A stretch of DNA of 64,000 bases from Promethearchaeota archaeon Loki_b32. Lineage in GTDB: Archaea; Asgardarchaeota; Lokiarchaeia; Sigyniarchaeales; SOKP01. The notes beneath the pieces were generated by a model. The model saw nothing but the letters and a program-made list of their open reading frames with translations, had not been told where the DNA came from and made no database searches. How positions within the stretch are numbered: the stretch's first letter is position 1; each line of letters starts with the position of its first letter. The stretch spans positions 62,323 through 126,322 of the forward strand of contig NJBH01000009.1 in assembly GCA_005223125.1 (NCBI GenBank). Reading direction: 5' to 3'. Shown one piece after another: positions 1 to 31,741 of the stretch. Made by a program: the position numbers and the translations under genes.

Positions 1-890
1 CCAAACCCAAAAAATTGACTCAAGATTAATGTTGTTTTATTGCCAATTTTATCAGTGATGCGTCCAGCAGGAATTTGAAAAAGAGCATTTCCTATATTAA
101 ACCATAAGTAAATGAAAGCAATATCAGCTTTAGTTAAATTGTAATACTTATATAAACCACCAGTATAAATTGATAGAGAAATGCTATATACGAAAATATC
201 TAAAGTAAAGAAAATTAAAATGGATCTTGAAGTCTTGGTTGTTAAAATTTTCACCCATATATTATTCTTTTTCTTTTCAAGATTCTTATTTGGCATAGTT
301 CGATTTTGAGAATCTATAGATTGAGCAGAAATAAAGAATGTAAAGATTATTCCCTCAATAACTAATAAAAGAATAAAAAACATAAAATAAAATCTTGAAT
401 TGATTATTTGAGTAAGAATTATGAATAAGGATCCAGCAATTGTTCCCGCAAAATAGGAAAAAAACATAAATCCGAAAATCAAACCTTTCGATTTATTACT
501 ATTCTCAGCAACTAAAAATTGAGTATTTAGATTATTAATTATAAAACCTAAAAAGTAGAGCAATATTCCTAAAATGACATAATTTAAGCTATTCGGACTA
601 GCTAAGATTAACAGGAAGAGTCCTAAGATATAGAGGGGAATACTTGAAATGAGTAAATATTTGCGGTTAAATTTATCAGAGAATTTACCTATTATAGGCA
701 TTGGTAAAAATTGCATTACTGTTCCAATTGAAATAATCAAACCCGTTAAGACTATTGAATTTGTGAGTTCCAGTAAAAAGGGTTGATATACTATGGTAAA
801 CATACCAGTACCAAAACCATGAATAAGTTTAGTTATGGCTAAAGCGATTAAATTTCTACGTTTACTTTTATCTAAACTATTAAATACCAT
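1..890 (-). CDS. MFS transporter (3' end runs off the window)
   Basis: Manual translation from ATG at 890: MVFNSLDKSKRRNLIALAITKLIHGFGTGMF...; multiple hydrophobic helices and the MFS motif-A-like GKFSDKFNRK. Not in the ORF track. Confidence 0.8.
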   Translation of the reverse strand, partial: MVFNSLDKSKRRNLIALAITKLIHGFGTGMFTIVYQPFLLELTNSIVLTGLIISIGTVMQFLPMPIIGKFSDKFNRKYLLISSIPLYILGLFLLILASPNSLNYVILGILLYFLGFIINNLNTQFLVAENSNKSKGLIFGFMFFSYFAGTIAGSLFIILTQIINSRFYFMFFILLLVIEGIIFTFFISAQSIDSQNRTMPNKNLEKKKNNIWVKILTTKTSRSILIFFTLDIFVYSISLSIYTGGLYKYYNLTKADIAFIYLWFNIGNALFQIPAGRITDKIGNKTTLILSQFFGF

Positions 891-16165: not shown

Positions 16166-16223
16166 ATGTTAATACCTTTTAAATTTATAGATTTACTTAT
16201 AAAAAATGAAACAATTTTGTTTT

Positions 16224-16251
16224 TAAAGGTTTAAGGTGCACTTTTAGAACA
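16224..16251 (-). promoter_or_regulatory. Conserved 28-bp upstream motif, copy 1 (putative operator + BRE/TATA)
   Basis: taaaggtttaaggtgcacttttagaaca; one mismatch to the copies at 17482 and 31219; 59 bp upstream of the ICMT-like start. Confidence 0.75.
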
Positions 16252-16353
16252 ATTTTGGATATAAAATAAAGGATGCTTATCTATTTCTTTATTTCTTCTT
16301 AGAAAATATATATCCTACAATTTCTAAAGTAGCATTCCTTTCCAATAAAAAAT

Positions 16354-17430
16354 CTATTTTTTATATTTATATATAATAATAATAACTATTACTAAACCTG
16401 TCATAATAACAACTATAATAACTGGGATTATAAAATTTGGATTTTGAGGTAGAGATAGATTTGAAAGTTCGAGGATTTCTAAACCATCATCTAAGTCAGT
16501 TAAAAATACTATATTATTATCAACAAATAGATTTCTCGTGTGCCCTCCATCATTAAATCCGCCTATCTTCCAAGGATTAGTAGGATCACTTATATTAACG
16601 ATTTCAAGCCCATCATTATCATCTGATAGAAAAGCTATATCATCTAAAATGAAAGCATAGTATACATTACCTCCGTTGTTGAACGATCCCAAAGTAATTG
16701 GATGGATAGGATCACTCACATTCAAGATCTCTAAACCATTTGAACTGTAACACAAGTAAGCAATATTTTCTATGACCTTAACACTGTAAGCACCTTCCCC
16801 ATTAAAACATCCACCGATTTCGGAAGGATTAAACGGATCTGAGATGTTAACTATTTCAAGACCTGCATGATATTCTGCTATATAAGCTAAGTCTCCTTTA
16901 ATAAAAACCCCGTTAGGCGATCCACCATCATTGTATTCACCAATTTTATTTGGATGTCTAATATCGCTGCAGTTAATAATTTCAAGTCCATTTTCTATAC
17001 TCACTAAATAGACAAGATCTCCAACAGTAAAAACATCAGAAACATGTCCTCCATCATAGAAATCACTTATCTTAGTAGGGTTTAATGGATTTGATACATT
17101 GACTATTTGCAAACCACTAAAATAATTCGCTAAATAAGCGACTCCATTAAGAACATCGATACTGTGAGTTACTCCGAGGTCAAGATGCCCCAATTCGGTT
17201 GGATTGCGAGGATCAGAAACATCAATAATTTGCAACCCTTCTTCATTTCCCCCTATATATGCTATATCATCGATTACTACAACATCCCAGGCAAATAAAG
17301 TGTCGAATTGCCCGATCTTTTGTGGATGCATAAATAAATCAGCATATACTTTATTATTGTTTGATAAAACCGTAAAAAATACTATAATAATAATAAAAAA
17401 TATCTTTAAGGGGGGTGCCTTTGAATTCAT
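16354..17430 (-). CDS. LVIVD-repeat beta-propeller surface protein with signal peptide and C-terminal TM anchor
   Basis: Repeats of AY(I/L)xxxxxGL(E/Q)I(I/V)(D/N)(V/I)SDPxNP; hydrophobic N- and C-termini with a KYKK tail. Confidence 0.9.
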   Translation of the reverse strand: MNSKAPPLKIFFIIIIVFFTVLSNNNKVYADLFMHPQKIGQFDTLFAWDVVVIDDIAYIGGNEEGLQIIDVSDPRNPTELGHLDLGVTHSIDVLNGVAYLANYFSGLQIVNVSNPLNPTKISDFYDGGHVSDVFTVGDLVYLVSIENGLEIINCSDIRHPNKIGEYNDGGSPNGVFIKGDLAYIAEYHAGLEIVNISDPFNPSEIGGCFNGEGAYSVKVIENIAYLCYSSNGLEILNVSDPIHPITLGSFNNGGNVYYAFILDDIAFLSDDNDGLEIVNISDPTNPWKIGGFNDGGHTRNLFVDNNIVFLTDLDDGLEILELSNLSLPQNPNFIIPVIIVVIMTGLVIVIIIIYKYKK

Positions 17431-17481
17431 ATTTCCTCAAATATTTTTGAATGTTTAATTTAATTTATGAAAATATTATTA

Positions 17482-17509
17482 TAAAGGTTTAAGGTGCACT
17501 TTTCGAACA
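17482..17509 (-). promoter_or_regulatory. Conserved 28-bp upstream motif, copy 2
   Basis: taaaggtttaaggtgcacttttcgaaca; 52 bp upstream of the LVIVD gene start. Confidence 0.75.
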
Positions 17510-17561
17510 TTTTAAAGTATTAATTTTACCTTGGAAGATTAAGACTTTAAAATTTTAAAAC

Positions 17562-18356
17562 TTACTTGAGTAATATTGCAGAGAACAGTTCTTCTACTAG
17601 TTTGTTTACTTCTAGTAAACTTTTTGATTTATCAGAGACATCAATTATTGGTTTTCCTTTTAATTCAAATTCAGTTATTTCATTATCTTCTGGAATTTCT
17701 GCTAAAAGGGGTAATTTTAGATCATCAATTTTCTTTTTAATCTGACTTGTATTACCTTTAACTCTATTTAAAATGAGACCTAACTTTTTATATTGAGTAA
17801 ATTTTTTTGCACCATTACGTATAGCAGCAGCAGTTTCTATACTCCGTATTGAGATATCTGAAACAATTAAAAGGATATCTACTGTTTCAATAACCATTCG
17901 ATTGATTTGCTCAAGTCCTGCTTCACAATCAATTAAAACTATGTCAAAATCTTTAGTGATTGAGTTAATTACCTTACGTAAAAGTGCATTTGAAGGACAA
18001 AAACATCCAGGTCCCTCAGGTTGTCCTATAGAAAATAAACTAAAATTTTTACTTTCTGTAATTGCATTATATACTTCAAAGTCAATATTTTCTGCTACTT
18101 TATCCAAATCTTTTGCTTTTGTTAAAATTTCATCTATAACATCAGTTCTTAATTTTTCAAGACTTTTTTTGGGAATTAAATTTACCATATGACTCAAATG
18201 AGGATGTGTTGGATCTGCATCAATTAATAGTATATTAAAATCATATCCTTTTGAAATACTCTTAGCTAAAAGAGTTGTTATAGCTGTCTTACCAGAACCA
18301 CCTTTTCCTACAACTGAAATTGTTAACGGTTTTTCATAATTTTTTTGTTTTTTCAT
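17562..18356 (-). CDS. cooC: CooC/AcsF-type nickel-insertion ATPase (MinD/ParA family)
   Basis: GKGGSGKT, IDADP, GPGCFCPSNALLR, DCEAGLEQ. Confidence 0.85.
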   Translation of the reverse strand: MKKQKNYEKPLTISVVGKGGSGKTAITTLLAKSISKGYDFNILLIDADPTHPHLSHMVNLIPKKSLEKLRTDVIDEILTKAKDLDKVAENIDFEVYNAITESKNFSLFSIGQPEGPGCFCPSNALLRKVINSITKDFDIVLIDCEAGLEQINRMVIETVDILLIVSDISIRSIETAAAIRNGAKKFTQYKKLGLILNRVKGNTSQIKKKIDDLKLPLLAEIPEDNEITEFELKGKPIIDVSDKSKSLLEVNKLVEELFSAILLK

Positions 18357-18377
18357 AATCTCGATAATTCTACAACT

Positions 18378-19160
18378 TTATCTTTCAATTTTTTCTCTTT
18401 CAACTAATACTTGTTTAATCTCATAACATTCTTCTTGATATGGACAGATCTCACATCCCCAATCATATTCACAATCTATTCTTTTTTTCCAATTTTCTAT
18501 TTTCTTTAACCATTTTTCATTTATATAAGAATTAATTTTAGAAGTGATCTTAATAAACTCATCAATTACATTTGTATAAGTATTAACAAAAAAAATCTCC
18601 ATAGACTCAATTAGATCTTTGAAACGTTGTTTGTATAAATAAAAAATCGCATTTCCTAAAAATTCAAAAGTAAAATCCTTCATTATTTTCTCACTAATTC
18701 TACACCAAAATTTTCTAGGAATTGTCCTTATCAAAAATCCTTCTATTCCATTAGATATTAGATTAAATTGTCTTAAAGAATCCCAATCCTTTTCAGTAAT
18801 ATTCTTTCCCCCAATCAGGATTATCATTCCAAAATCGATCGATAGGTCGTGTATATCCTTATTTTCTACTCCAATTAACGTAATTGTTCCTTTTTTTACA
18901 GCATTTATAAAATCTAATTCAGAGAAAGGATAAACTAATGAAAATGACTTTTTATTGATACCTCCCAGTTCAAGCTTAGTTTCTTCTTGAAGAATAATCT
19001 CTTTATGCTTATCTAATTCAACTTTAATACTTAACTTTTCAAAGAGTTTAGGAGGATTAGGATTTTCTTCATAAATAAATACATTTCTCCCTTTTTGGGA
19101 CTCGGAGTTTATATGATTCCTTAAACCATCAAGAAATTCTTCAAATAATTCGATCTTCAT
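18378..19160 (-). CDS. Stand-alone protein resembling part of the acetyl-CoA synthase beta subunit (CdhC/AcsB-like), with a C-terminal Cys cluster
   Basis: ETKLELGG, GTITLIG, EGFLIR, WCRIS and terminal DCEYDWGCEICPYQEEC; adjacent to cooC. Confidence 0.5.
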   Translation of the reverse strand: MKIELFEEFLDGLRNHINSESQKGRNVFIYEENPNPPKLFEKLSIKVELDKHKEIILQEETKLELGGINKKSFSLVYPFSELDFINAVKKGTITLIGVENKDIHDLSIDFGMIILIGGKNITEKDWDSLRQFNLISNGIEGFLIRTIPRKFWCRISEKIMKDFTFEFLGNAIFYLYKQRFKDLIESMEIFFVNTYTNVIDEFIKITSKINSYINEKWLKKIENWKKRIDCEYDWGCEICPYQEECYEIKQVLVEREKIER

Positions 19161-19212
19161 AAAATTCCATTTATGATTCTATAAAGATAATAAAAAAAAA
19201 GGATTAATAGTT

Positions 19213-20478
19213 TTAACTCTTAATTGCTTTATTTATTAATTCTGATAGATCAAAGGTTTTAATTTCACCATCTTTGATATTTGCCTTGAATTGGTTTAAA
19301 CAGAATGGACAGCAAGATACAATTGCTTCAGCAGTAGTTTCTTTCGCTTCCTCAATTCTTTCATTCGCGGCAAAATTTGATAAATCTTTAAATGCTGACC
19401 TCACACCGCCCCCAGAACCACAACACCAAGCATTTTGTTTATTTCTTGGCATTTCCATTAAATTAATTCCAGGAATGTTCTTCAATACTTCTCTTGGGGG
19501 TTCAAAGATTCCCATATGGCGACCAATATGACAAGGATCGTGATACGTTATGTTCATGTTTACATTGTTATTGAATTTTACCTCATTATTATTTAATTTC
19601 TCCAGTATAAACTCAGGTAAATGAAGTATCTCAATACCATGGTCAAGCCCAAATTTCTTAGGGTATGTCTCTTTTAATGTTCGATAACAACCCGCACAAG
19701 ATGTTATAATTTTTTCAATTCCTTCATTTTTAAAGATATTTACATTAGTCTCAGCAATCTGTTTTGCTTTTTCAGTTTGTCCAGTCATATATACAGGAGA
19801 TCCGCAACAATACTCCTCTTTAAGTATTTTAAAATCAACTTGAAGGGAATTCAATATTTCTGCGGTATTAATTGCGATTTTTTGTTCTCTATAACTTGTT
19901 GTACATCCAACAAAATATGCTAGTTTTGCATCTTGAGATTGTTTAATATTTGAGGTAATCCAATTTGTTCTATCTTTATGTTTTTCCATATATGGATTAA
20001 ATTCTTTACCAACATGGTCAGTATACTGTTTTTGTTCTGGCATTGGTCCTAAACCTTTTTGAACTGCTTTTTCTCTCATTGCCATCAACCATTCTCCGGC
20101 ATAATAGTGAATCTCTGGTATTTGACATTGTTGTGTACATGCTAAGCAAACAGAACATTGGTAAAATATATTTGCTAAATTTTCTGTCCAATCTAAGCGA
20201 TTTGAAGTAACTGCCCAAGAAAGAAGATTTTTTCCTCCTAAATAATAAGCCTCAAACTTTCCAAATTCTCCAGAGGGACAAACTCGAAACCAACCCTCTT
20301 CCTGATATCCAGTTCGGCATGTACCACATTTTCCACATTGATATAAGATGTCTTTATAATATTCTAAATCTTTATGTCTATCAAGTTTTTGTTGATCGGG
20401 GACGGTTTCAATACGAGTTATGCCTTTACCATCGACAAATTTTATTTTTTCTTCTTTCACCATTTTAATCATCTCCAA
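19213..20478 (-). CDS. GlcF/HdrD-like Fe-S oxidoreductase with CCG domains
   Basis: CGKCGTC, CSVCLACTQQC, YFVGC, CCGSP, YHDPCHIGR, CCGSGGG. Confidence 0.9.
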   Translation of the reverse strand: MEMIKMVKEEKIKFVDGKGITRIETVPDQQKLDRHKDLEYYKDILYQCGKCGTCRTGYQEEGWFRVCPSGEFGKFEAYYLGGKNLLSWAVTSNRLDWTENLANIFYQCSVCLACTQQCQIPEIHYYAGEWLMAMREKAVQKGLGPMPEQKQYTDHVGKEFNPYMEKHKDRTNWITSNIKQSQDAKLAYFVGCTTSYREQKIAINTAEILNSLQVDFKILKEEYCCGSPVYMTGQTEKAKQIAETNVNIFKNEGIEKIITSCAGCYRTLKETYPKKFGLDHGIEILHLPEFILEKLNNNEVKFNNNVNMNITYHDPCHIGRHMGIFEPPREVLKNIPGINLMEMPRNKQNAWCCGSGGGVRSAFKDLSNFAANERIEEAKETTAEAIVSCCPFCLNQFKANIKDGEIKTFDLSELINKAIKS

Positions 20479-21940
20479 TACCCTGTCCTGGATTCATAAT
20501 ATTATTTGGATCAAGAAATTTTTTTATCCTTTCAATTAGATTATTTGTTTCTGGAAGAGTTTTATCCTTATAGTGTTGAACTACCCATTTTGGAGGTTTA
20601 TACATTATTGTTCCTTCAAGTTGTTGAACAGCATCATGAATTTCTTTTAGAATTTGCCTTGTTTTTCTTATATCTTCTGGATCATTTTTATTAAAATTCA
20701 CATTAGTCCTTGTAACGCAATAATGACCACCAAACATAATTCTACAATAATATTGAGGTGATTTTCCGTATTTAAGGCAGATTTCTCTTGATATTTGGTA
20801 ATATTTTATAATATTGCGTGTTGTATTATAACATCCAATCCACTCTCCTCCGCCACCTCTAGCAAAATTCCAACATCCCCAAAATTGTATTGGCATTTGA
20901 CCTCCCGTTACTGGGAATATATGACCTAATACTCCCCTCATTTTTTTGGGAAAATTTCTTGTTTGAACATCAGCAGTTAGTGGTTCAATATTATATTCAC
21001 GACATATTTTTTTAATAGCATCGCACTGTGCTTTATGCTGTTCTTCTGTGTATGCTTCAGTTGTAATTAGACCAATAAAGTCAGGCAACCCTAGTGAAAC
21101 GGGGTCTATTGCTACACTTTTCTGATCAAAACATTGAAGAGATTGAGCCCATCCCATATTTGTCATCAATAAGTCTACAATTCCTAGACCCGCTTTTGAT
21201 AATTTAAGCAACATAGGAACTCCATCTTCAACTCTAGTTGCAAAAGGAAGAAAATCAGTTCGATATGGGAGTTTTGGCCATATTTTAATTGCTGCTTTTG
21301 TTACGATTCCAGTAGTACCTTCCCATCCTATAAATAATCCTGAAATATCCGGTAAAGGCTGTCTACCGTACCAATAATCAGTAAGACTACATGAACCGGC
21401 TCTTATTAGTTCTCCAGTTGGTAAAACTACCTCTAAACCATTGGTAAATTCTGCTCCTGTCCCTCCTATCATACCAAGATCCCACATTCCATAAGCTAAA
21501 CATGAAGGAACCACACCTGTACCTGGAGGTGAAAATGTGACTCCTATACGAAAATCTGGATGATATTTATCAAAATATCCCTTGAAATCCGCCCACGTAA
21601 TTCCTCCTTCAACAACAGCATACATATCATCCTCATTTACTTCAAGCACATGATTCATGCGTCGTAAATCTACAACAATACCTCCTTTTCGAGGTGTAGC
21701 AATTGAACCAAAATTAATCCCTGAAACCCAAGGTACGATTGGAATCTTATGTTTATTCGCAATTTTTACAATTTCTTGGACCTCTTCAGCAGTTTCAGGC
21801 ATTATAGCAATATCACATTTACCTTCTGGTTCTGCGGTTATAAAATCATAATGGTATAAATATTGTATCTCAGGTTCATCAGATACATATCGATCTCCAA
21901 CAATTTTTTCTAATTCTGCTATTATCTCGCCATTATTCAT
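20465..21940 (-). CDS. FAD-binding oxidoreductase (GlcD / D-2-hydroxyacid dehydrogenase family)
   Basis: PETAEEVQEIV, VDLRRMN, GLEVVLPTGE, GWEGTTGIVT, KKFLDPNNIMNPG. Confidence 0.88.
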   Translation of the reverse strand: MNNGEIIAELEKIVGDRYVSDEPEIQYLYHYDFITAEPEGKCDIAIMPETAEEVQEIVKIANKHKIPIVPWVSGINFGSIATPRKGGIVVDLRRMNHVLEVNEDDMYAVVEGGITWADFKGYFDKYHPDFRIGVTFSPPGTGVVPSCLAYGMWDLGMIGGTGAEFTNGLEVVLPTGELIRAGSCSLTDYWYGRQPLPDISGLFIGWEGTTGIVTKAAIKIWPKLPYRTDFLPFATRVEDGVPMLLKLSKAGLGIVDLLMTNMGWAQSLQCFDQKSVAIDPVSLGLPDFIGLITTEAYTEEQHKAQCDAIKKICREYNIEPLTADVQTRNFPKKMRGVLGHIFPVTGGQMPIQFWGCWNFARGGGGEWIGCYNTTRNIIKYYQISREICLKYGKSPQYYCRIMFGGHYCVTRTNVNFNKNDPEDIRKTRQILKEIHDAVQQLEGTIMYKPPKWVVQHYKDKTLPETNNLIERIKKFLDPNNIMNPGQGIGDD

Positions 21941-22005
21941 TTTTAATTCACTTAATTTGAAATTTTAATATAAAATTATATTTACTTAATGATATTAAAG
22001 CGTTT

Positions 22006-23307
22006 TCACATTAGTGTCTGAGAAAACATCTTTATTTTATCCCGAATAATTTTTTCAGATGCAAATCGAGCATCCCCCACGTCAACATCAATTAAAAGCA
22101 TTGGTATACCAACTTCATCTCTTAATGCTTCTCTTAAAATTTGAGGAACACTTCCGAATTGCTTACAACCAATATGAGATGTAAATATAAAACAATCAGC
22201 GGAATAATCTTTTGCTAATTGAACACATTCATCTATAAAAGAGTAATAGAATTCTGCAGACTGCTTAACCATGGGTGCTTCCATTGACCTCCTCGCCATA
22301 CCATAAAGCATAGTATCTAAATCTGATTTAGTATTAATTGGTTCAGCAAAATTATAATTAAAAATATCAAATAAAATTGACATTCCAAGATGACGATCTA
22401 ACCATTCTCCAAGTTCTAAATCAAAGAATATAATCATATATGGCCAAATACTCCTTATTTTTTCCTCTCCAGCATGGTGTTCTTTATTTTTATACCTTTT
22501 TTTCGATATTTCAAGCATGTCATTATAAAAACTTGCTTTTTCAGTACGCCCAGATAAATAAATTGCTGCTGCTGCTGACATTGCGTTAAACATATTCTCT
22601 ACCGGACATGGTTTTACCTTTTTTAATTCGAAAATTTCTAATTGCAGTTTTGTCACTTGATTTTCTAATTCAATTGCTTCTCGTAATTTACTATAATCGG
22701 GTTCTTGATTTATAACTTTACCTAACGCTTCTAATCCCAATTTAATTTGTTCCCCATGATAATGATAACTTTTTTCCTCTTTTAAAAAAGGTAAATCTGG
22801 TGCTATAAGTGGGATTTTTTTATGATAAGAGAAAAAGGGATATGATGCGTATGTGTTATCACATGGAGCTGTTGGTGTAATAATAGCATCAAACTTAAAT
22901 AGATCATCCAAAGTCATTCCCATTGTACCTTTCTGAGAGGTACAAGTGTGAAAGGGGTGACCCCAATTAGTAATTAAATCATAATATTTCTCAGAACCAT
23001 GCGGTAATAGTGCTGCCAATAGATATGAAACAGCTTCTATACAAACAGGAACACAATCAAAGCAAGAAAGGTATTCTGTAGGGAAAGAGAAATGGTGTCC
23101 AATTATGGGTAAGCCTTCTCTTGCTTTTTGGATATATTCTTCCATCACTGATTTTAAATGTTTTAAACCAATCCGTAATGAGGGGATTCCCTTATCTGGG
23201 AGTATTCCTTCTATTAATCCAGAAGTAGATTTAACTGCTTCATATAACATTTTATATGGAATTATTCTATTTTCTAATTCAACTCTTTTTGCCAATTTTT
23301 TTTTCAC
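22006..23307 (-). CDS. 2-hydroxyacyl-CoA dehydratase subunit (HgdA/FldB/BcrB-like)
   Basis: TCTSQK, APCD, SHIGCKQ, GIPMLLIDVDVGDAR. Confidence 0.82.
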   Translation of the reverse strand: MKKKLAKRVELENRIIPYKMLYEAVKSTSGLIEGILPDKGIPSLRIGLKHLKSVMEEYIQKAREGLPIIGHHFSFPTEYLSCFDCVPVCIEAVSYLLAALLPHGSEKYYDLITNWGHPFHTCTSQKGTMGMTLDDLFKFDAIITPTAPCDNTYASYPFFSYHKKIPLIAPDLPFLKEEKSYHYHGEQIKLGLEALGKVINQEPDYSKLREAIELENQVTKLQLEIFELKKVKPCPVENMFNAMSAAAAIYLSGRTEKASFYNDMLEISKKRYKNKEHHAGEEKIRSIWPYMIIFFDLELGEWLDRHLGMSILFDIFNYNFAEPINTKSDLDTMLYGMARRSMEAPMVKQSAEFYYSFIDECVQLAKDYSADCFIFTSHIGCKQFGSVPQILREALRDEVGIPMLLIDVDVGDARFASEKIIRDKIKMFSQTLM

Positions 23308-23335
23308 ACTTTTCTTTATGTTATATCTTAATATC

Positions 23336-24481
23336 TCAAGAAATCATTTCTATAAAAGCTTCAATTCTCGTTTGCAAACGAGTAGTATCTGCTTGAAAGA
23401 ATTCTCTATCAATATTTAGAACAGGAATTTCCAAATCTTTTAATTCATGAGAAAAAAGCATATTATCACATCCTGCTAGATCACAATTATTAATTCTTTG
23501 TAAAATTACTCCATCAATCTTTGCCCTTTTTATTTCATCTTTAATAAAATCTAAGCGCCGTTGATGATCATCCATCATTCTGGGGCAAGAGATCCGGTAA
23601 TAATGACGCCTAGAAATCATTTCTAAAGGATTCTTTCCATCTTCTAATTTTACATCATCTAAGAAATTTCTAATTCCAAAACATAAGAAATCTGATACAA
23701 TATTAGCGCCAGAATTTTCAATTAGTTTTGTAAAATTAATATCATCAACTTCACTTCCGACAAGCATTACTCTTTTAGCATCTGTTTTCAATCCTTCAAT
23801 CTCTTTTAATAAATTTAAAATTCGTTCTAATTCCTGATTAGCTATATCTTTTGGAACAGAAGAATTAGCCATCGATATTTGCAATGCCTCAGTTCCTGTG
23901 ATTTTTGGAGCATCTTGAATTCTTAATTTATGAATCTCTCGTAATAGACTTCGATTCTTGTTGTAAATATTAATAGAATTTAACAGATCCTCATCAGTGA
24001 TTTTTTTATTATTATAATTTTTTTCTATTTCTTCTTTTAATTCCTCAATTTCTCTTTTATACCATTCAAAACCTTCTTTAGTTACGATATGGGGTATAGC
24101 AATATAGAATCTTGGTACTTTTTTATTAAAGCCCTCACGTTTAAATACCTTTAAATCAAATAATTCAAACATTCTGCGGGAATGATCGCAGGAATTACAA
24201 ATAAAAAGACCATCCAAAAAATCATAAAACCCACGTAAAGCCATATCTAATGTGGCTCTAACGAATGAACATGTAAACCGTACCATATATATATCTCCGA
24301 GATCTGTATCCTCATGTCCAGTTGCTCTGATTCTGAATGGTAATAAATTAGCGGCATACAATAATTCTTCTGGAATATAGGTACAATAATGACCTACTAT
24401 TTTTTTATTATCTTTTTGCCAATCTTCAATATAATGATTTTTTATAGAATTAGAAGCTGTTAAAAATGGATCTTTGTACAA
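23336..24481 (-). CDS. 2-hydroxyacyl-CoA dehydratase subunit (HgdB/FldC/BcrC-like)
   Basis: CTYIPEELLYAA, TCSFVR, NSCDHSRR, SCPR, NCD, TRIEAFIEMI. Confidence 0.85.
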   Translation of the reverse strand: MYKDPFLTASNSIKNHYIEDWQKDNKKIVGHYCTYIPEELLYAANLLPFRIRATGHEDTDLGDIYMVRFTCSFVRATLDMALRGFYDFLDGLFICNSCDHSRRMFELFDLKVFKREGFNKKVPRFYIAIPHIVTKEGFEWYKREIEELKEEIEKNYNNKKITDEDLLNSINIYNKNRSLLREIHKLRIQDAPKITGTEALQISMANSSVPKDIANQELERILNLLKEIEGLKTDAKRVMLVGSEVDDINFTKLIENSGANIVSDFLCFGIRNFLDDVKLEDGKNPLEMISRRHYYRISCPRMMDDHQRRLDFIKDEIKRAKIDGVILQRINNCDLAGCDNMLFSHELKDLEIPVLNIDREFFQADTTRLQTRIEAFIEMIS

Positions 24482-24498
24482 ACTTATGATAAAACACC

Positions 24499-24987
24499 TT
24501 ATCTACCTTTTTTATACATTTCATGTTTACCTATCATTAAACATCTTACCAATTTGATAGCGGCAACATAAGATCCTTTTATTTTAGCTTTTCCTGGAAT
24601 GATGTATTTTAAAAGTTTTGCTAACCCAAAAATATTGCTCTTAGAACGAATTATACTACTTATCACAGTAAGAATTTTCTCTTCTTTAACATTTATAATA
24701 ATTCTTGCAACAGGATCAATAGCTTTCTCTGCGTGACAATTAAAATTATTCCGATCTGATGTGAGTATGAATGTAATGTATCCATCGAATTCTTTGAGGT
24801 ATAATTCAATTTCTTTACCTTTATGCTTGCCTACTTTTTTAAAGGGTTCATCTTGACCGTATAAATCGACTAGCATTTTTGCTAACCTAGCAATATTGAG
24901 AATTTTTGTATCTTTAATTAAATTCTCTGCTCTAATATTTATATCAATTTTTTTTGAGGCGTTTGTTTGATTTATAGCTGCCACCAA
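24499..24987 (-). CDS. Hypothetical protein, SCP2 (sterol-carrier)-like
   Basis: C-terminal GKAKIKGSYVAAIKL resembles the SCP2 signature; first gene of the dehydratase operon. Confidence 0.45.
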   Translation of the reverse strand: MVAAINQTNASKKIDINIRAENLIKDTKILNIARLAKMLVDLYGQDEPFKKVGKHKGKEIELYLKEFDGYITFILTSDRNNFNCHAEKAIDPVARIIINVKEEKILTVISSIIRSKSNIFGLAKLLKYIIPGKAKIKGSYVAAIKLVRCLMIGKHEMYKKGR

Positions 24988-25075
24988 TTATGTGAGATTG
25001 CGGTTATTATATTTTGAATTTTCAAGTATTTAAAGATTTTATTGTCAAATTTATTTTCTAATGTTGGAATTAAAG

Positions 25076-25435
25076 TTACTCAAAAGGTTCAAAACTTCTA
25101 CAAATAGATTCTTTTTTTAAAAATTTATTCTTAATTTGACAATGAAATATCTCCTCATTATAGTAGACACAATTGCAACAAGAGAAGAGATGATTTTTTA
25201 GTTTTTTAGTTATTTCCTTTAATTTTTCAGGATACTTTCCTTTACTTAACATAGTTTCAAGTTTATCGTGTGATGTTGCTGTTAATTTACAAAAGATGAC
25301 CTTTGGAGAGGGAGGATTCCATATTTCAATCAAAGACGTACCAGTTACATTCGTAGGAGAATTTTGGTTGTTATACCCACATTTACAAAATTTTTTCCTT
25401 AACATATTTCCACATTCAGGACAGAATTCAACCAA
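25076..25435 (-). CDS. Small double Cys-cluster protein with an RpoM/TFS-like N-terminal Zn ribbon (paralog A)
   Basis: VEFCPECGNML..CKCGY; C-terminal CCNCVYY..HC..SIC. Confidence 0.7.
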   Translation of the reverse strand: MVEFCPECGNMLRKKFCKCGYNNQNSPTNVTGTSLIEIWNPPSPKVIFCKLTATSHDKLETMLSKGKYPEKLKEITKKLKNHLFSCCNCVYYNEEIFHCQIKNKFLKKESICRSFEPFE

Positions 25436-25619
25436 TATTCTTTTATCACCGTTAGATGTGTATAATAGGATATAATTAATTAAAAAGTCTCTAATTTTAT
25501 AATTACAATTAAATTCTCTGTTATCATATTTCAGAAAATATTAGTTGAGTGTTAAAGTAAAATCCTTTAATTTTTCTTTTTTATTTCAAAATTAGACAAA
25601 TAGACTTATTTTAAGTATT

Positions 25620-26366
25620 TTATATGTAAGGAGAGATATCAAAATCTTGCTCTAAAGAAAGATTTATGAAGTCATCTACTTCTTGCTGCGAATCTCCATA
25701 AATTTTTAAGAGATATCCATTATCTTTCTTCTCAACTTCAACTCTAAAACCATAAAACATTGTTTTATATTCTAATTCCTTGACTCTCCTTTCATTATCA
25801 GCATCACCCAGAAAATATTCGCCATAAAAGTCACCCTTCGATAGTTTACGGAGCGAATATGCTGGAATCTCAACAACTTTACCATCAGATCTCTGGCAAT
25901 TAATCCTTGCATTTTGGGTAAATTCACTAGGTTTCTCTAAGAGCCTTACTTCTTTTGATTGGGTTATCCAAAATAACATATCTCCTATTTCTATGGATTC
26001 TAGCATACTTATTGTCTCTTTACTAGCACTCTTACTAATAAACCTTAACCGTCTTTCTTCTTTCTGTATCCATTCGCAGGCTCTATTAAGCAGTACTTTT
26101 ACTCCAAAAGAATTGCCACTATTGAATTCTCGCCAAAATTCATCTAAATAATTACAGATATAAAAATCTAATTGCATATCAAGAATCTTGAATGGACAAT
26201 TTTTCTTATTTTGACGACAAATAAAATATTTTTTAGACATTAAATTATGTAAAAAATAACACTTCAAATATAAATAATTAATGAATCTATTGGGAATAAG
26301 AAAAAAAATTTTATAAAGTACCGAGATAATTTCTAAGTTTAGAAAACTGCTCCTTAGTAAGTTCAA
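25620..26366 (-). CDS. Hypothetical protein (probable start ~26240, MSKKYFICRQ)
   Basis: Long ORF; the 5' extension overlaps the nuclease fragment and is probably spurious. Confidence 0.55.
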   Translation of the reverse strand: MNLLRSSFLNLEIISVLYKIFFLIPNRFINYLYLKCYFLHNLMSKKYFICRQNKKNCPFKILDMQLDFYICNYLDEFWREFNSGNSFGVKVLLNRACEWIQKEERRLRFISKSASKETISMLESIEIGDMLFWITQSKEVRLLEKPSEFTQNARINCQRSDGKVVEIPAYSLRKLSKGDFYGEYFLGDADNERRVKELEYKTMFYGFRVEVEKKDNGYLLKIYGDSQQEVDDFINLSLEQDFDISPYI

Positions 26367-26594
26367 TACCTGTCCACTCTTTTATCTGCTTAAGGATTTC
26401 ATTCATCCAAATATTCTGATCCCATTTCTCCCAGATTTCTACCAATATTACATTCTTATCCTTACAAATAAGCCTCTTCTTCCTATCAGCTTCCTGTTGA
26501 TCTGGATGACTATCACCATGCCAATATGTCCCCTGAGCTTCAAAAGCAATTCCTATCCACTTATCATCTAAACCTAGATAATCCTTAAGTGGTT
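26311..26594 (-). pseudogene. 5'-truncated Vsr/DUF559-like endonuclease domain fragment
   Basis: Manual translation ...YLGLDDKWIGIAFEAQGTYWHGDSHPDQQEADRKKRLICKDKNVILVEIWEKW...GTL*; ExxGxYWH...DxxK...IWE pattern. Confidence 0.65.
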
Positions 26595-26641
26595 CGGCTC
26601 ATATCTAATATCATCTAAACCTAGATAATCCTTAAGTGGTT
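26562..26641. repeat. 33-bp perfect direct repeat (26562-26594 and 26609-26641) with a 14-bp spacer
   Basis: tatcatctaaacctagataatccttaagtggtt occurs twice. Confidence 0.9.
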
Positions 26642-26645
26642 TATT

Positions 26646-26934
26646 TAATTCCAGATAATTCTCATATATTTATATGGTCCGGTTCGAATTAGCTGCTTTC
26701 TATGAGTTAATTGAAATATTAATGAGTAAACAAAAAGCTGAAATAAAAATAGTCAGTTGATAGAATTCTGGGATTTTGAAAGAAAAAGGATATGTAAATT
26801 ATGAACGGAACACTCATTATACCTTTCCATATAGTTAAACAGGGTACATACTGAAAAATTGGAATTAATATTGAAGAAATTCTCGTAGAAATTGCTTCAA
26901 TTTTTCTTTTAATTTTACTTCTCTTAAAATTCAT
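26646..26934 (-). pseudogene. Disrupted ICMT/PEMT-like paralog of 15575-16165
   Basis: N-terminus SSILIPIFQYVPC...; after a deletion/frameshift it reads SLIFQLTHRKQLIRTGPYKYMR and is then truncated. Confidence 0.82.
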
Positions 26935-26961
26935 CCTTGGTTCCCATATATCTATTGCGAA

Positions 26962-27687
26962 TTATTCTTTTTGATTTACATATAACTTTATTTCACGATT
27001 ATATCTTTCAAGTATTATTAAATCAAGTTTAGCCAGTTTATCAACATGATATTTCACAGAACTTCGGCTCATATCTAATTTCTTAGCAATCTTCGCTGAA
27101 TTAATGCCAGGATTTTTTTCAATTAAATCTAGAATTTTTATGCTAGTTTTAGACTTTGTAATCAATTTTAATGGTATTGTTTTCATTTCTTTTTTGGATA
27201 AAACAGGGAAAAAGGATACATATTGTCCTAATTTCTCTTTTTTAATTATTCCATATTGTAATAATACATATAAATGCCATTGTAACTGCCCCTTCTGCAA
27301 ATTACATTTTCTAAGGAGTTCATTATTATGGATTCCGGGTTCTTGTAGAATTTTATTAATGATATTTTTACGGTTTTCATTTTCAAAAATATCTTCGAAA
27401 GATAAATAAGTATACCGTTCAGCTACTATTGTTTTTCTTCTAAAATAGTCTTTATACTGATTAACAGTTAGTATGATTAAAAGTGATGTTAAAATTAGTG
27501 TGAAAAATGCTAATAAATCGATTAAAAACCAATTGATATTATCTTCAAGATAAAAAGATATCTTCGTTTCAGGAGAGATTAGTAGGAATAAGGATAATAG
27601 AGAAATGCAAATAAGAGTGATTATAATACCTAATTTGATATAAAATAACCGTTTGTATTTCCCTATTTCATTTTTAAAAAAACTCAT
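26962..27687 (-). CDS. Membrane-anchored (2 TM) double winged-helix transcriptional regulator
   Basis: Two TM segments, then IFENENR...PGIHNNEL...LQKGQLQWHL...PGINSAKI...VKYHVDKL; paralog of 14837-15568. Confidence 0.85.
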   Translation of the reverse strand: MSFFKNEIGKYKRLFYIKLGIIITLICISLLSLFLLISPETKISFYLEDNINWFLIDLLAFFTLILTSLLIILTVNQYKDYFRRKTIVAERYTYLSFEDIFENENRKNIINKILQEPGIHNNELLRKCNLQKGQLQWHLYVLLQYGIIKKEKLGQYVSFFPVLSKKEMKTIPLKLITKSKTSIKILDLIEKNPGINSAKIAKKLDMSRSSVKYHVDKLAKLDLIILERYNREIKLYVNQKE

Positions 27688-27707
27688 ATTAAATAAAAAG
27701 AAATTGG

Positions 27708-27998
27708 CTAATTAAAAATTTTAAAAATTATTTTAGTCTTAATTTTTTTTTTAAAATCGTTTACTCTAACTGTAGAATATAAGGTTCCCGCGGGGTAAAT
27801 ATGTTTGGAATTTTCTATCCGAACAAGAACGATTAAAAATCCTAAGAAACTAACTACTATAATTAATAGGATTTTATATAATAGAGAATGTTTACTGTTA
27901 TCAAATAAAAATACTTTGTTTATTTCTTTTCTGTTTAGACCTAATCCCTCTCCAATTTTATATAGATTAAATATTTTATCAAACATTTTATTGATCAC
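27708..27998 (-). CDS. Small single-TM protein, YPxGTxYS family member 3 (putative rSAM substrate)
   Basis: LYKIGEGLGLNRKEIN - TM - YPAGTLYSTVRVNDF; likely start at ATG 27986. Confidence 0.75.
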   Translation of the reverse strand: MINKMFDKIFNLYKIGEGLGLNRKEINKVFLFDNSKHSLLYKILLIIVVSFLGFLIVLVRIENSKHIYPAGTLYSTVRVNDFKKKIKTKIIFKIFN

Positions 27999-28065
27999 AC
28001 TTCTATTTTCTTGTTAAAAAATTATTGGTTTTAAATTTTGGTGTCTTAATTTTCTCTTTATGCAA

Positions 28066-29412
28066 TCATGATATAGTTCCAATAGAAGTAATTGGTTCAA
28101 ATTTTGGTACGACACCTTTCTTACGTTTTATCCAATTTAATTCATCCGTTATAACAGATTTTATCTTACCTTTATTTCGAATATTAGTTATTCTTAGAAG
28201 ACGCAATGCCTTTTTATAAATTTTCAAAGCCTGAGAATTCGATTTTAGCTTTACTAAAACTTTACCTAAATTCCAATAAAATAAAAAATTGTCTCTATAG
28301 AGTTGTATAGCTTTTAAAAGCATATTATAGGCTTTCTTATAATTTTTTTGATAAAATATCTTTACACCGAGATAAAAAAAATTAAAAGCACTTCTTTCTG
28401 CTAAAGCAGATGCGAAAAACTTTAAATTATAATCTTCGTTTTCCTTTGATAAATTTCTTAATTTATCGATAAGATTTTTTCTTTCCTCTTTGACTTTTAT
28501 TAGATTTGTTATAAATTTTCTCGCAAAAGATTCTATTGAATAAAAAACAATTTTTTGTGATCCTGAATTAATCGGACCTTTTTTTAATAAATTATATAGA
28601 ATATTGGGGAAATTGTATTGAATTAAAAGATCTGTAATTTCTCGTATGTTCGAATTTTCAGATTGAGAAATAAAATATTTACTTTCTATTACTTTCAATA
28701 ACAGATTGACGATTTGAGGCCATTTTATGAGTGATTCAATAATTAAGTCATAAATTAACTTTTTATTCTTCTTTCTTTTAAATTCAAGCGTTTGTATTGC
28801 GATAAAAGATAATAAATCTTCTTGTTCTTTAATTAACAGTGAATCATTAAAATTACTGTAATTCATAGTAAGTAATTTTTTACGGATTTTAGCTATAATT
28901 TGAAATATTTCTGTTTCATATACATTCATTACTTTAATACATTCAAATCTTACTGATGGAATAAATTCATGGTTGTAAAAACTTTTGGTACTCATATTTT
29001 CAAATCCATTATTTTCTAATAGTTCAATTAACAAGAAAGGAGGAAAACATAATTTATGTTGTAAACCTTTATGGGGTATTCCGTAAATCCAACCTAAAAT
29101 TTCTTTTTTTTGTTCTTTGGTCGAATCTAGATAATGCCGACATACTTTCTTGAGATCAGGAGTCTCAATAATTAATTTACCTCCTGGTTCTAATACCCGA
29201 AAAAATTCACTTAAGGCATAGATTGCTTCAAAAAATGATAAGTGCTCTATTAGATGAATGGCTTTTATTTCTTCACTACAATTATCTTCAAATTGTAAAT
29301 CTATAGCGGACATTAATTTATCTGCAATTAATGTTTCATATAAATCAATATTGCAATAACCTATCTCGTACTTTTTTCCACAACCGATATTTAATTTCAT
29401 TTTTCTTTTCAA
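28066..29412 (-). CDS. Class I SAM-dependent methyltransferase with C-terminal TPR region
   Basis: KLNIGCG...NID, HLIEHL, FFRVLEPGGKLIIETPD; C-terminal YKKAYNMLLKAIQL...YWNLGKVL...ALKIYKKAL TPR pattern; likely start 29400. Confidence 0.82.
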   Translation of the reverse strand: MKRKMKLNIGCGKKYEIGYCNIDLYETLIADKLMSAIDLQFEDNCSEEIKAIHLIEHLSFFEAIYALSEFFRVLEPGGKLIIETPDLKKVCRHYLDSTKEQKKEILGWIYGIPHKGLQHKLCFPPFLLIELLENNGFENMSTKSFYNHEFIPSVRFECIKVMNVYETEIFQIIAKIRKKLLTMNYSNFNDSLLIKEQEDLLSFIAIQTLEFKRKKNKKLIYDLIIESLIKWPQIVNLLLKVIESKYFISQSENSNIREITDLLIQYNFPNILYNLLKKGPINSGSQKIVFYSIESFARKFITNLIKVKEERKNLIDKLRNLSKENEDYNLKFFASALAERSAFNFFYLGVKIFYQKNYKKAYNMLLKAIQLYRDNFLFYWNLGKVLVKLKSNSQALKIYKKALRLLRITNIRNKGKIKSVITDELNWIKRKKGVVPKFEPITSIGTIS

Positions 29413-29656
29413 AATCTTTAATTTTTATAGTAGAATATTTTGTGCCAGATGGATAAGTACTATCTGCTGAATTTATTCCAATAGATATTAAGAAGAATAA
29501 TAAGATAGAAGATGATACAATTAAAATAAAAATAAATAATATTCTAAATGAAATTTGATGTTTTTTATCATGAAAAAATAATAAATTATTTACCTCTTTT
29601 TTAGATAGCCCTAAAAATTTGCCAAATCTGTAAAATTGAGCAATTGTGGTAATCAT
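29345..29656 (-). CDS. Small single-TM protein, YPxGTxYS family member 2 (putative rSAM substrate)
   Basis: FYRFGKFLGLSKKEVN - TM - ADSTYPSGTKYSTIKIKDF; ATGA overlap with the upstream paralog. Confidence 0.75.
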   Translation of the reverse strand: MITTIAQFYRFGKFLGLSKKEVNNLLFFHDKKHQISFRILFIFILIVSSSILLFFLISIGINSADSTYPSGTKYSTIKIKDFEKKNEIKYRLWKKVRDRLLQY

Positions 29657-29988
29657 TTTAAAGATTTTACACCAATATTTAGAACTTTAAAAAATCTACT
29701 ATAGAAAGGGGAAACGAGTTTGCTAAATCTAGATTTATTCTTAAAATCTTTAACTTTTACTGACGAATAAAAAGAGTTGGAAGGATACGTGGAATCTGCG
29801 GGGTTGGTTATTATCATAAAGAGTGAAAATATAAATATACAGAAAAATGCAATAATAATTATGGAAAGACAGAAAAGTTTCATTTTTTTATATCTCCCCG
29901 AATAAGATAAGAAAACTCTATTGATTTCATTTTTATGAATTCCTAAACTCCTACCAATTTGATAAAACTGGATAATCTCATCAAACAT
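29653..29988 (-). CDS. Small single-TM protein, YPxGTxYS family member 1 (putative rSAM substrate)
   Basis: FYQIGRSLGIHKNEIN - TM - ADSTYPSNSFYSSVKVKDF; GGAGG RBS at 30001-30005. Confidence 0.75.
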   Translation of the reverse strand: MFDEIIQFYQIGRSLGIHKNEINRVFLSYSGRYKKMKLFCLSIIIIAFFCIFIFSLFMIITNPADSTYPSNSFYSSVKVKDFKNKSRFSKLVSPFYSRFFKVLNIGVKSLK

Positions 29989-30017
29989 TTTTAATATTAA
30001 CCTCCATTATCATGAAT

Positions 30018-31172
30018 TTAATTTAAGATATTAATTAATTTTGATATTGTAGTATCTACTTTTTTATTAATAGGTACAAGTTTATGATTTATCATTGTAT
30101 TTTCAATGGCTCTCAAACAATAAGGGTTTTCAAAGGATTTTAAAGCTAGACTAGTTCCAAGGCAACCCCCCCTACAATCATCAGCAAGATCGCATTGCTG
30201 GCAAAAATCTTTTAATGGATATCTTTTATTTTTCAATCTTTTTAAAATTTCATCTAAACTTTCATTTCTAATATTACCTTCAATATAATCATCTGGAAGT
30301 GTAAGACATCCTTTTATGTTTCCATTACTTTGAATACCTAAAACTGAATGACCTGCTTGACACCCAACCCAAGGATTTAATCCTAATTTAGGAATAAACC
30401 TTGAGAAATATCCAAAGCAATGAGCCCCGATTAAAGGTAATCTTTTGTAAGAATATTTTTTATGATTAATTGCTATAAATAATGCCAAAGTATAATATTC
30501 TTCTCTAGAAATAACTAATTCTTTTGGAAAACGTCCAATAGGGACTGCTAATTGGATTTGCCATGCGATATTTTTATCAATTAATAACTTCTTAATCATG
30601 TTTATTTCTTTAAAATTAATTTTACTTACGGACGTAATAACAGTTACTGGAAGCTTTTCTTTTTTTAGTAAACTTATAAGATTTAAAGTTTTTTTGAATG
30701 AATTGTTGATACCCCGTAAATAATCATGTGTTTCTCCTCTTCCTCCATCTAAACTTAGAGATACACAGTCTGTTTTTAATTCTTTTATCTCTTGTATATG
30801 TTTCTCTAAATTTAATCCATTCGTGATTATGGATAATTGCATTTTTTGATTTTTTACATCTCTTGCAATGTCATACCAATCATCTCGTAATAATGGTTCG
30901 CCCCCCATTAAAGCAACTCCCTTATAACCATATGACTTTAAGTCTTTAACTAATTTTAAAGCTTCATTTGTATTTAATTCATCAGAGCGAGCAAATCCTG
31001 CATCTGAACCACAGTGAATACATTTACTATTGCACTTTAACGTGATTTCCCAAACTGCACAATTAGGTTTAATTTTATTTAATAATAGATCTGAAAATTT
31101 CGTCATATGATTTTCTGAATTACGTTTATTATTGTTATTTATGATTTGTAAATTAAAATCCTTTGTTTGCAA
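30018..31172 (-). CDS. Radical SAM / SPASM-domain protein
   Basis: VWEITLKCNSKCIHCGS (CxxxCxxC), GGEPLLR; SPASM GCQAG...GNIKGC...GNIR...CQQC...CRGGC...PYC. Confidence 0.93.
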   Translation of the reverse strand: MQTKDFNLQIINNNNKRNSENHMTKFSDLLLNKIKPNCAVWEITLKCNSKCIHCGSDAGFARSDELNTNEALKLVKDLKSYGYKGVALMGGEPLLRDDWYDIARDVKNQKMQLSIITNGLNLEKHIQEIKELKTDCVSLSLDGGRGETHDYLRGINNSFKKTLNLISLLKKEKLPVTVITSVSKINFKEINMIKKLLIDKNIAWQIQLAVPIGRFPKELVISREEYYTLALFIAINHKKYSYKRLPLIGAHCFGYFSRFIPKLGLNPWVGCQAGHSVLGIQSNGNIKGCLTLPDDYIEGNIRNESLDEILKRLKNKRYPLKDFCQQCDLADDCRGGCLGTSLALKSFENPYCLRAIENTMINHKLVPINKKVDTTISKLINILN

Positions 31173-31218
31173 TAAAAAAAATTTAACTTCGTTATACTAT
31201 TAGTAAAAATCTTAGTAA

Positions 31219-31246
31219 TAAAGGTTTAAGGTGCACTTTTCGAACA
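31219..31246 (-). promoter_or_regulatory. Conserved 28-bp upstream motif, copy 3
   Basis: taaaggtttaaggtgcacttttcgaaca, identical to copy 2; 47 bp upstream of the rSAM TTG start. Confidence 0.75.
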
Positions 31247-31369: not shown

Positions 31370-31741
31370 TCAACCGATAATATCATACGGTTCATAACTT
31401 TTGCATATAGAATCTTTACTTAGATACTTATTCTTAAATTTACAATGAGATATTTCCTCATAATAGTAAACACAGTTTCTGCATGAATAAAGATGATTTT
31501 TAAATTTTTCTCTAACTTCCTTTAATTTTTCTGGAATCATCCCTTTATTTAGCATAGATTTAAGTTTTTCATGTGGAGTTGCTGTTATTTTACAATAGAT
31601 GGCATTTGGAGAGGGAGGGTTCCAAATTTTTATCAAATGATTGTGAGACGCATCCTTAGAGGTAGCATCCAACTCACCATACCCACACCGGCAAGTTTTT
31701 TTTCTTAACATGTTTCCACATTCAGGACAGAATTCCACCAT
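31370..31741 (-). CDS. Small double Cys-cluster protein with an RpoM/TFS-like N-terminal Zn ribbon (paralog B)
   Basis: MVEFCPECGNMLRKKTCRCGY...IWNPPSP...CRNCVYY..HC..SIC; clear paralog of 25076-25435. Confidence 0.7.
   Translation of the reverse strand: MVEFCPECGNMLRKKTCRCGYGELDATSKDASHNHLIKIWNPPSPNAIYCKITATPHEKLKSMLNKGMIPEKLKEVREKFKNHLYSCRNCVYYYEEISHCKFKNKYLSKDSICKSYEPYDIIG

Follow-up and report, generated by a model that had tools for sequence, protein, structure and literature searches.

The 64,000-nucleotide window analysed here (C58:62323-126322 in the 4.13-Mb assembly of 71 contigs of Promethearchaeota archaeon Loki_b32) carries three copies of a 28-bp repeat, hereafter the box, each located just upstream of a minus-strand gene. 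The genes concerned encode an ICMT-like membrane methyltransferase, a LVIVD-repeat beta-propeller and a radical SAM (rSAM) enzyme, and the two loci also harbor paralogous regulators, REG1 and REG2 (collectively REG), with predicted transmembrane (TM) helices and tandem winged helix-turn-helix (wHTH) domains. The 28-bp repeat is a real, ancient and highly specific promoter-proximal control element. The box is probably the autoregulatory operator of REG, defining a cell-envelope regulon. A first-pass annotation of the window had proposed a regulon joining the two loci; this is borne out, as both carry one class of box and a fourth site is found on another contig. Moreover, the regulon is not confined to these two loci or to this genome, and its age is much greater than they would suggest.

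Box and promoter architecture

On the plus strand, the exact sequence TAAAGGTTTAAGGTGCACTTTT(C/A)GAACA is present at 16224-16251, 17482-17509 and 31219-31246 (n = 3), compared with an expected count of 0 in 100 dinucleotide shuffles. The C/A at a single position is the sole difference among the three 28-mers, and comparison of the sequences flanking them shows these to be mutually unrelated, so that both the copies and their unrelated flanks are as the first-pass annotation had described them. Counted along the minus strand, the box is separated by 58 nt from the ICMT-like gene (ATG 16165), by 51 nt from the LVIVD gene (ATG 17430) and by 46 nt from the rSAM gene (TTG 31172), which matches the 59, 52 and 47 of the earlier counting. 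The last of these gaps stands for TTG 31172 only. Orthologous rSAM genes start 121-138 nt past the box, so that the true rSAM start is probably ATG 31106, located 66 nt further downstream (gap 112 nt), with TTG 31172 representing an extension of the open reading frame (ORF).

The specificity of the element becomes clear upon scanning the whole genome, a check proposed at the outset, with a position weight matrix (PWM) derived from related sites (both strands of the 4.13 Mb, 8.3 million positions). Only four sites exceed 10 bits, and none falls between 10 and 38 bits. Three are the window copies, numbered 1 to 3 by position (51.9, 53.1 and 49.5 bits, respectively), and the fourth lies on another contig (C52:14095 of this genome, G000; locus L093, ~2096-2127; 38 bits). 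This fourth site is a diverged box, TGTTCTATAAGTAGACCTTAAACCTTTATTAA, positioned ~125 nt upstream of a second rSAM cassette (genes L093 2251-6046) that consists of an rSAM-SPASM enzyme (374 aa), a small TM protein (86 aa), a methyltransferase-TPR (MTase-TPR) protein (449 aa) and a 340-aa CBM96-like Zn-ribbon membrane protein. With this hit, the regulon of the present genome amounts to four promoters rather than three. All four sites are intergenic, promoter-proximal and in the same orientation as the next gene; the motif is not randomly scattered.

The minus-strand sequence of the element is TGTTCGAAAAGTGCACCTTAAACC, with no spacer before the TATA box (TTTAWAAA). The window copies read TGTTC(G/T)AAAAGTGCACCTTAAACCTTTA and continue with AAAA, TAAT or TTAC, indicating that the last four bases of the 28-mer open a TATA-like octamer. 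The box thus abuts the TATA box and is co-oriented with the downstream gene, which agrees with the earlier claim of a promoter-proximal site as opposed to a random repeat or the end of a mobile element.

To describe the conservation of the element, we aligned 78 non-redundant sites of the genus, numbered from the G of GTTC as position 0. A near-invariant block extends from T(-1) to about +30, whereas the 25 nt upstream reach only 0.02-0.3 bits per position; part of the conservation of the block is due to selection by the search pattern, and T-1, A-3 and the WAAA that completes the TATA box (+27..30) are conserved outside this pattern. Near-invariant positions include G0, T1, C3, G11, A13 and C14, as well as A5, A7-G9, T10, C15-A20 and the TTTA at 23-26 (positions 23-24 in 78/78 sites, 25 in 75/78 and 26 in 74/78). 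The GTnC-N7-GnAC signature named in the first-pass annotation is therefore upheld. Its description of the element as an imperfect inverted repeat followed by a BRE/TATA-like sequence (BRE, TFB recognition element) stands for the invariant half-positions and the abutting TATA box, but not as a strictly kept palindrome, as GTGCAC is swapped for GTGGAC or GTGTAC in 14 of the 78 sites and strict symmetry is thus not required.

Beyond the element, a conserved TAA is located 28-30 nt downstream, 25-26 nt from the TATA centre, and is found at each of the window sites. Transcription is predicted to start, on the minus strand, at the A at 16198 for site 1 (within the TAA at 16199-16197), the A at 17456 for site 2 and the A at 31193 for site 3. 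Among 44 non-ICMT promoters, T, A and A at +51..53 reach 75, 70 and 73%, respectively, against ~45% at neighbouring positions, and these positions lie outside the search pattern. The TAA is a putative initiator at the distance expected for archaeal promoters. By sequence, the sites display what characterizes archaeal TBP/TFB promoters, namely a TATA box whose spacing is constant and, ~25 nt past its centre, a putative initiator.

Regulon members and lineage variants

Of 24 genomes sampled from the genus, 23 contain the 18-mer core of the box, frequently as pairs separated by 1.2-1.8 kb. Collecting this core from sampled genomes together with flanking DNA yielded 87 sites from 41 genomes of the genus. 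At 79 of the 87 sites, a co-oriented ORF starts at most 160 nt from the box, and four sites are at contig ends. The first gene is ICMT-like at 33 sites, 27 of which have it 55-58 nt from the box, followed by the LVIVD propeller (13 sites), rSAM (9), a 510-535-aa HExxH-containing protein with signal peptide and C-terminal anchor (7), the small TM peptide of rSAM cassettes (4), a 167-217-aa multi-TM protein (4), an SCP2/HGD operon at long distance (4), an SBBP propeller (3), a 236-241-aa multi-TM protein (2), REG directly (1) and an ICMT-REG fusion (1). Where ICMT or its fusion with REG comes first (34 sites), a separate REG gene is directly next in 28 cases, the rest being fusions or contig ends. 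The core target is the ICMT-like/REG operon, accompanied by variable targets: propellers, the HExxH protein, small multi-TM proteins and cassettes of rSAM, small peptide and MTase-TPR genes. The target families are membrane or secreted proteins. The element thus precedes the operon of a transcription factor along with other genes in diverged flanks, the pattern of an autoregulated regulon, and its variants extend to seven further genera in two families.

In four loci of related genomes (L063, L077, L090 and L067), the box is followed by a conserved ttccatttcca and precedes an SCP2/2-hydroxyacyl-CoA-dehydratase operon by 195-413 nt; the same operon in the window (24987 downward) has no box upstream (24988-25075). 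Matches to the 18-mer outside the family with two mismatches (L004-L008, L022, L032) were rejected as chance, having neither the 5' TGTTC nor the 3' TATA and lying in unrelated contexts.

The element or a variant of it was found upstream of the REG operon in every lineage examined with intact upstream DNA. In genera of the same family (g13, g14, g15, g17), variants with the skeleton TGTTC...ACCT...TATA are situated 45-80 nt before ICMT-REG or REG-alone operons. The skeleton is also kept in genera g8 and g9 of a second family, which lack ICMT and have the element, e.g. TGTTCTAAAATTATTCCTTAAGTTTTAAAT, ~45 nt before a REG-like gene; with such variants in ICMT-less lineages, REG alone is constant among the downstream genes across the order. 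A comparable arrangement is seen in G043, where the box lies ~155 nt before REG with no ICMT in between, and in G024, which is similar with a variant box. Genus g12 encodes many long REG-like paralogs of ~760 aa, in which a signal peptide and a large external domain precede the TM part and the tandem wHTH. A genus-specific variant occurs in three of four sampled g12 genomes, and the g12 pattern found no box in G071. In one of them, G095, the variant GTACACCTC / AGTTCGAAAAGTACACCTCAAACCTTTATATA occurs at least 13 times (e.g. L136:3750-8560, L143, L150-L156), mostly before large signal-peptide or anchored proteins and also before a 768-aa REG-like gene, and ~16 matches to REG are seen in this genome, the long ~760-aa paralogs among them.

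We compared the presence of the box (at most one mismatch; 113 hits, against 12 for a reversed-pattern control) with that of a REG ortholog (best E per genome, E <= 1e-45). In genus g1, the box is present in 41 of 44 REG-positive and in 5 of 9 REG-negative genomes; in genus g14, the corresponding numbers are 18 of 32 and 1 of 10. The pooled Fisher p of 2.5e-4 is descriptive only, because it ignores kinship. Of the g14 genomes with REG and without the canonical box, four of the five looked at carry the variant GTGCACCAAT, and a few others examined carry other variants. The nomination of the TM-wHTH proteins as the best candidate binders in the first-pass annotation is thus supported, as far as sequence goes, both by the box or its variants before REG operons across lineages and by their co-occurrence.

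REG as candidate reader of the box

REG1 matches PF13412 HTH_24 (E 4.6e-21) and PF24266 (E 7.5e-20), and REG2 does so with similar values. In the AlphaFold2 (AF2) model of REG1, hydrophobic helices 9-45 and 52-86 form an N-terminal TM hairpin with an outer loop of ~6 residues, followed behind flexible linkers by two well-predicted wHTH domains (101-162 and 184-241). The two hydrophobic helices are conserved in 33 orthologs, their assignment as TM helices stemming from the AF2 model and hydrophobicity. A DNA-binding domain and a TM segment, the hallmarks of transmembrane transcription regulators, are hence both predicted within one polypeptide. The recognition helices of REG1 and REG2 are almost identical. 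Across g1, g9 and g12, the wHTH1 helix GQLQWHL is invariant, whereas the wHTH2 helix differs in g12, which weakly suggests that wHTH1 reads the invariant TGTTC half of the box. With the REG model as query, Foldseek yielded nothing beyond generic winged-helix proteins, single or tandem, and a PDB sequence search gave a single weak hit (5duk, E 2.7e-5). Homologs in metagenome-assembled genomes (MAGs) of Promethearchaeota/Lokiarchaeota bear only the label 'winged helix-turn-helix transcriptional regulator', and the literature searched gave no functional account of HVO_0163, the namesake of PF24266.

The ICMT-like gene is adjacent to REG throughout family f1, and the two are joined in in-frame fusions in two genomes. 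The fusion in G018 (L039:~6800-8100, 431 aa) has its own box 50 nt upstream, and the one in G002 (L068, 430 aa) starts 27 nt after a standalone ICMT gene. In G101 (L141), a tandem ICMT-ICMT protein (414 aa) precedes REG. Residues R105-H106-P107-Q108-Y109, E149 and E160 of ICMT, which we take to be its cofactor-binding motif, are invariant in 36 orthologs, indicating that the orthologs probably keep their enzymatic function. A predicted complex of ICMT with the TM hairpin of REG (residues 1-100) scored 0.21 against a mark of 0.32 and was used neither for nor against an interaction. We infer that ICMT acts as the membrane partner or signal input of REG, which is itself devoid of a sensor domain.

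In the mechanism that we propose, the operator would occupy roughly -58 to -31 and run directly into the TATA box at a limited number of promoters. REG, tethered in the membrane by its N-terminal two-helix hairpin with almost no external loop, would be co-transcribed with the ICMT-like methyltransferase, or fused to it as in some species, and might be modulated by it. The two wHTH domains would then read the asymmetric 28-bp site. In this way, REG would control its own operon, i.e. be autoregulated, and in addition the variable envelope genes for surface beta-propellers, the HExxH-containing secreted or anchored protein, small multi-TM proteins and the rSAM/small-membrane-peptide/MTase-TPR cassettes. 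Activation and repression appear roughly evenly probable: as the conserved block spans the BRE position beside a near-consensus TATA box, repression by occlusion of TFB is as plausible as activation by recruitment.

Several observations weigh against REG as the reader of the box. The box is present with no REG ortholog found in G005 (100% complete) and G020 (92%), and likewise in the incomplete genomes G019, G049, G064 and G122. Conversely, three REG-positive genomes of the genus have no box with at most one mismatch, two of them having diverged boxes and one a contig break. For the genus, two sites from the same genome resemble each other no more than two from different genomes do (permutation p = 0.19), so that co-variation of factor and site is seen only between lineages, and the co-occurrence counts are phylogenetically non-independent. 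As ICMT co-occurs with REG, the phyletic pattern alone does not separate the two, which are told apart only by the DNA-binding domains and the ICMT-less lineages. Finally, a conserved gene for a 119-123-aa Zn-ribbon protein could be another player; at least 17 related loci have an ortholog of it that terminates 3-130 nt before the first box.

Some of these points would fit a genuine box that is read by another factor, such as a soluble regulator, a specialised TFB/TBP paralog with an extended BRE or the Zn-ribbon protein, REG being merely one of the regulated genes. Boxes in G005 and G020, the conserved Zn-ribbon gene and the inclusion in the conserved block of the BRE position directly 5' of the TATA box all point in this direction. 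However, REG is the only DNA-binding gene consistently in cis and the only constant downstream gene in two families, including the ICMT-less lineages. The box also co-occurs with a REG ortholog and its variants track REG lineages, and the window Zn-ribbon gene at 25076-25435 has no box downstream. We therefore consider a different reader rather unlikely.

The near-consensus TATA box at a fixed distance and the dyad symmetry that is not strictly maintained could also be expected if the box were only an unusually long and strong core promoter, a BRE/TATA with an upstream extension that was inherited and copied and has no dedicated regulator. This is very unlikely, as there are just one to four copies per genome in the genus, confined to envelope genes and the regulator operon. 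An archaeal BRE comprises ~6-7 bp, and the ~23 near-invariant positions upstream of the TATA box are far beyond what BRE recognition needs. In addition, C occurs at -1 and -2 in only 8-9% of the TATA-like sites upstream of 1,700 ORFs of this genome, indicating that the CC before TTTA is not generic. A generic BRE consensus sought in the same 1,700 upstream regions gave no usable signal in this 30%-GC genome, in which only 11 intron-less tRNAs were detected.

The possibility that the box is a mobile-element end, a recombination or attachment site or a structured leader RNA is close to negligible. A 28-bp repeat with a short palindrome and the rearranged state of the second locus, with its fragment of ICMT and the duplication of the Zn-ribbon gene (25076-25435 and 31370-31741), would suit it. 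Against it, the sites keep a single orientation relative to the next gene and a fixed distance to TATA box and start codons, and more than 50 species have them at orthologous positions although the flanks have diverged. All copies lie the same way round, none of them forming an inverted pair, and the scan of neighbouring genes revealed neither a transposase nor an integrase. Leader RNAs fold no better than shuffles (z +0.3 to +1.4), and an Rfam 15 scan of the region gave no credible match, its one sub-threshold hit elsewhere being attributable to chance. The alternative of mobile-element ends, considered in the first-pass annotation itself, is thus answered by co-oriented sites whose orthologous positions are kept across species.

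With REG as the probable reader, one may speculate further on the signal. ICMT and the tethered tandem-wHTH regulator could together make up an archaeal transmembrane signalling module of a new kind, spread across the whole order in Loki-type Asgard archaea. Its signal would be a methylatable envelope or peptide substrate of ICMT, possibly the rSAM-matured small membrane peptides of the same regulon, and its output a remodelling of the surface proteome, resulting in an autoinducing peptide/surface loop. We regard this extended scheme as improbable; if true, such a loop would be relevant to cell-cell contact or syntrophy.

Genes of the two loci and relation to known systems

The features of the two window loci are collected in Table 1. 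The ICMT-like protein scores above the Pfam gathering cut-offs of both families that it matches (PF04140, 32.5 bits with a cut-off of 24; PF04191, 31.2 bits with a cut-off of 25). The same rSAM cassette as in the window follows boxes in other genomes and on C52 of the present genome. Its leader in the window (31107-31214, ~110 nt; …aagatttttactaatagtataacgaagttaa…) is conserved between species, including those of L056, L078 and L087, and may contain a further regulatory site or a small ORF; no stable fold is predicted for it. Directly downstream of REG2, a 71-aa ORF that aligns with just the N-terminal third of ICMT orthologs looks like a truncated remnant of ICMT. The rSAM/REG2 locus lies between the two Zn-ribbon copies, a layout suggestive of a segmental rearrangement; an ESM Atlas search with the Zn-ribbon neighbour gave only leads below 0.9. 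The DNA between the window copies of the box carries metabolic operons.

Table 1. Boxes and genes of the two loci, in window coordinates
Feature	Position	Strand	Details
Site 1, box + TATA	16220..16251 (box 16251-16224)	-	TATA TTTAAAAA 16227-16220; promoter of ICMT-like/REG1 operon
Site 2, box + TATA	17478..17509	-	TATA TTTATAAT 17485-17478; promoter of LVIVD gene
Site 3, box + TATA-like	31215..31246	-	TTTATTAC 31222-31215; promoter of rSAM cassette
REG1, membrane-anchored regulator, 243 aa	14837..15568	-	Pfam PF24266 + PF13412; starts 6 nt after ICMT-like gene
ICMT/PEMT-like integral membrane methyltransferase, 196 aa	15575..16165	-	Pfam PF04140, PF04191; first gene of core operon
LVIVD-repeat beta-propeller, 358 aa	16354..17430	-	Pfam PF08309, E 2.4e-35; N-terminal signal/anchor, C-terminal TM anchor
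Zn-ribbon proteins, two paralogs, 119-123 aa	31370-31741 and 25076-25435	-	MVEFCPECGNMLRKK...
71-aa ORF, ICMT N-terminus-like	26719..26934	-	blastp: residues ~1-65 of orthologs, 40-78% identity
REG2, REG1 paralog, 241 aa	26962..27687	-	47% identity; end of rSAM cassette
SM1, SM2, SM3, small TM proteins (three paralogs)	29653-29988, 29345-29656, 27708-27998	-	rSAM cassette
MTase-TPR protein	28066-29412	-	rSAM cassette
Radical SAM/SPASM enzyme	30018..31172	-	Pfam PF04055, PF13186; heads cassette

In the literature searched, no Asgard transcription factor with a defined operator and regulon was found, and the present system is not described in the 'dark matter' paper (PMC4158269). The 28-bp site and the soluble tandem-wHTH part of REG offer a precise, testable pair, together with a compact envelope-gene regulon conserved over dozens of species. 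They point to a coupling of membrane and transcription in Loki-type archaea, suggest a regulatory role for ICMT-like enzymes and tie uncharacterised rSAM/small-peptide cassettes to surface proteins. The box may further serve as a marker, as scanning related MAGs yields new regulon members, mostly secreted or membrane proteins.

Two consecutive winged helices, as in REG, are also found in P. furiosus PF0095 (2quf/2qlz), ScpB and the RPC34/TFIIIC modules (Foldseek E 7e-5 to 4e-3). TM-scores to these are low (0.2-0.3), however, none of them is membrane-anchored, and the kinship in sequence is that of generic wHTH domains. The position of the operator resembles that of the sites of Ptr2 of M. jannaschii and TFB-RF1 of P. 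furiosus, archaeal activators that bind directly upstream of the BRE/TATA of promoters with weak core elements and are soluble Lrp-type or single-domain proteins. The box is likewise located directly upstream of or abutting the BRE/TATA, but its TATA is near-consensus, unlike that of the Ptr2 and TFB-RF1 promoters, which makes repression by occlusion of the BRE equally possible.

Regulators with a membrane partner are known from bacteria: ToxS and TcpH are membrane proteins encoded in the same operon as their regulator. With ToxR/ToxS, TcpP/TcpH and CadC-type regulators (class: PMC10269533), the REG system would share a membrane-tethered winged helix and the control of envelope genes. In contrast to their bacterial OmpR-type wHTH, periplasmic sensor and sigma-70 promoters, it combines tandem MarR/ArsR-like wHTH domains with archaeal TBP/TFB promoters, and the presumed partner of REG, joined to it as one protein in some genomes, is a polytopic ICMT-like methyltransferase.

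Membrane-bound regulators are known as a class in archaea as well (PMC10269533), with ArnR/ArnR1 of Sulfolobus acidocaldarius as membrane-bound one-component activators of the archaellum and pilus promoters (PMC6396743). The REG system resembles them in its two predicted TM helices, paralogous pairs, a box just upstream of the BRE/TATA (at -43 to -84 for ArnR) and cell-surface targets (PMC6396743). The proteins are built the other way round: ArnR carries a single HTH at its N-terminus and its TM helices at the C-terminus, along with HAMP and sensor domains (PMC6396743), whereas REG begins with its TM hairpin and ends in the two wHTH domains, with no HAMP or sensor domain among its Pfam hits. 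The operators differ as well, the ArnR boxes being two 15-bp palindromes (TCGAC-N5-GTCGA) and the present box one asymmetric 28-bp block that touches the TATA box. ArnR is without an ICMT-like partner, and no sequence relationship between REG and ArnR was found. The REG system would thus work like the class of membrane-bound regulators, but it is not a member of the ArnR family.

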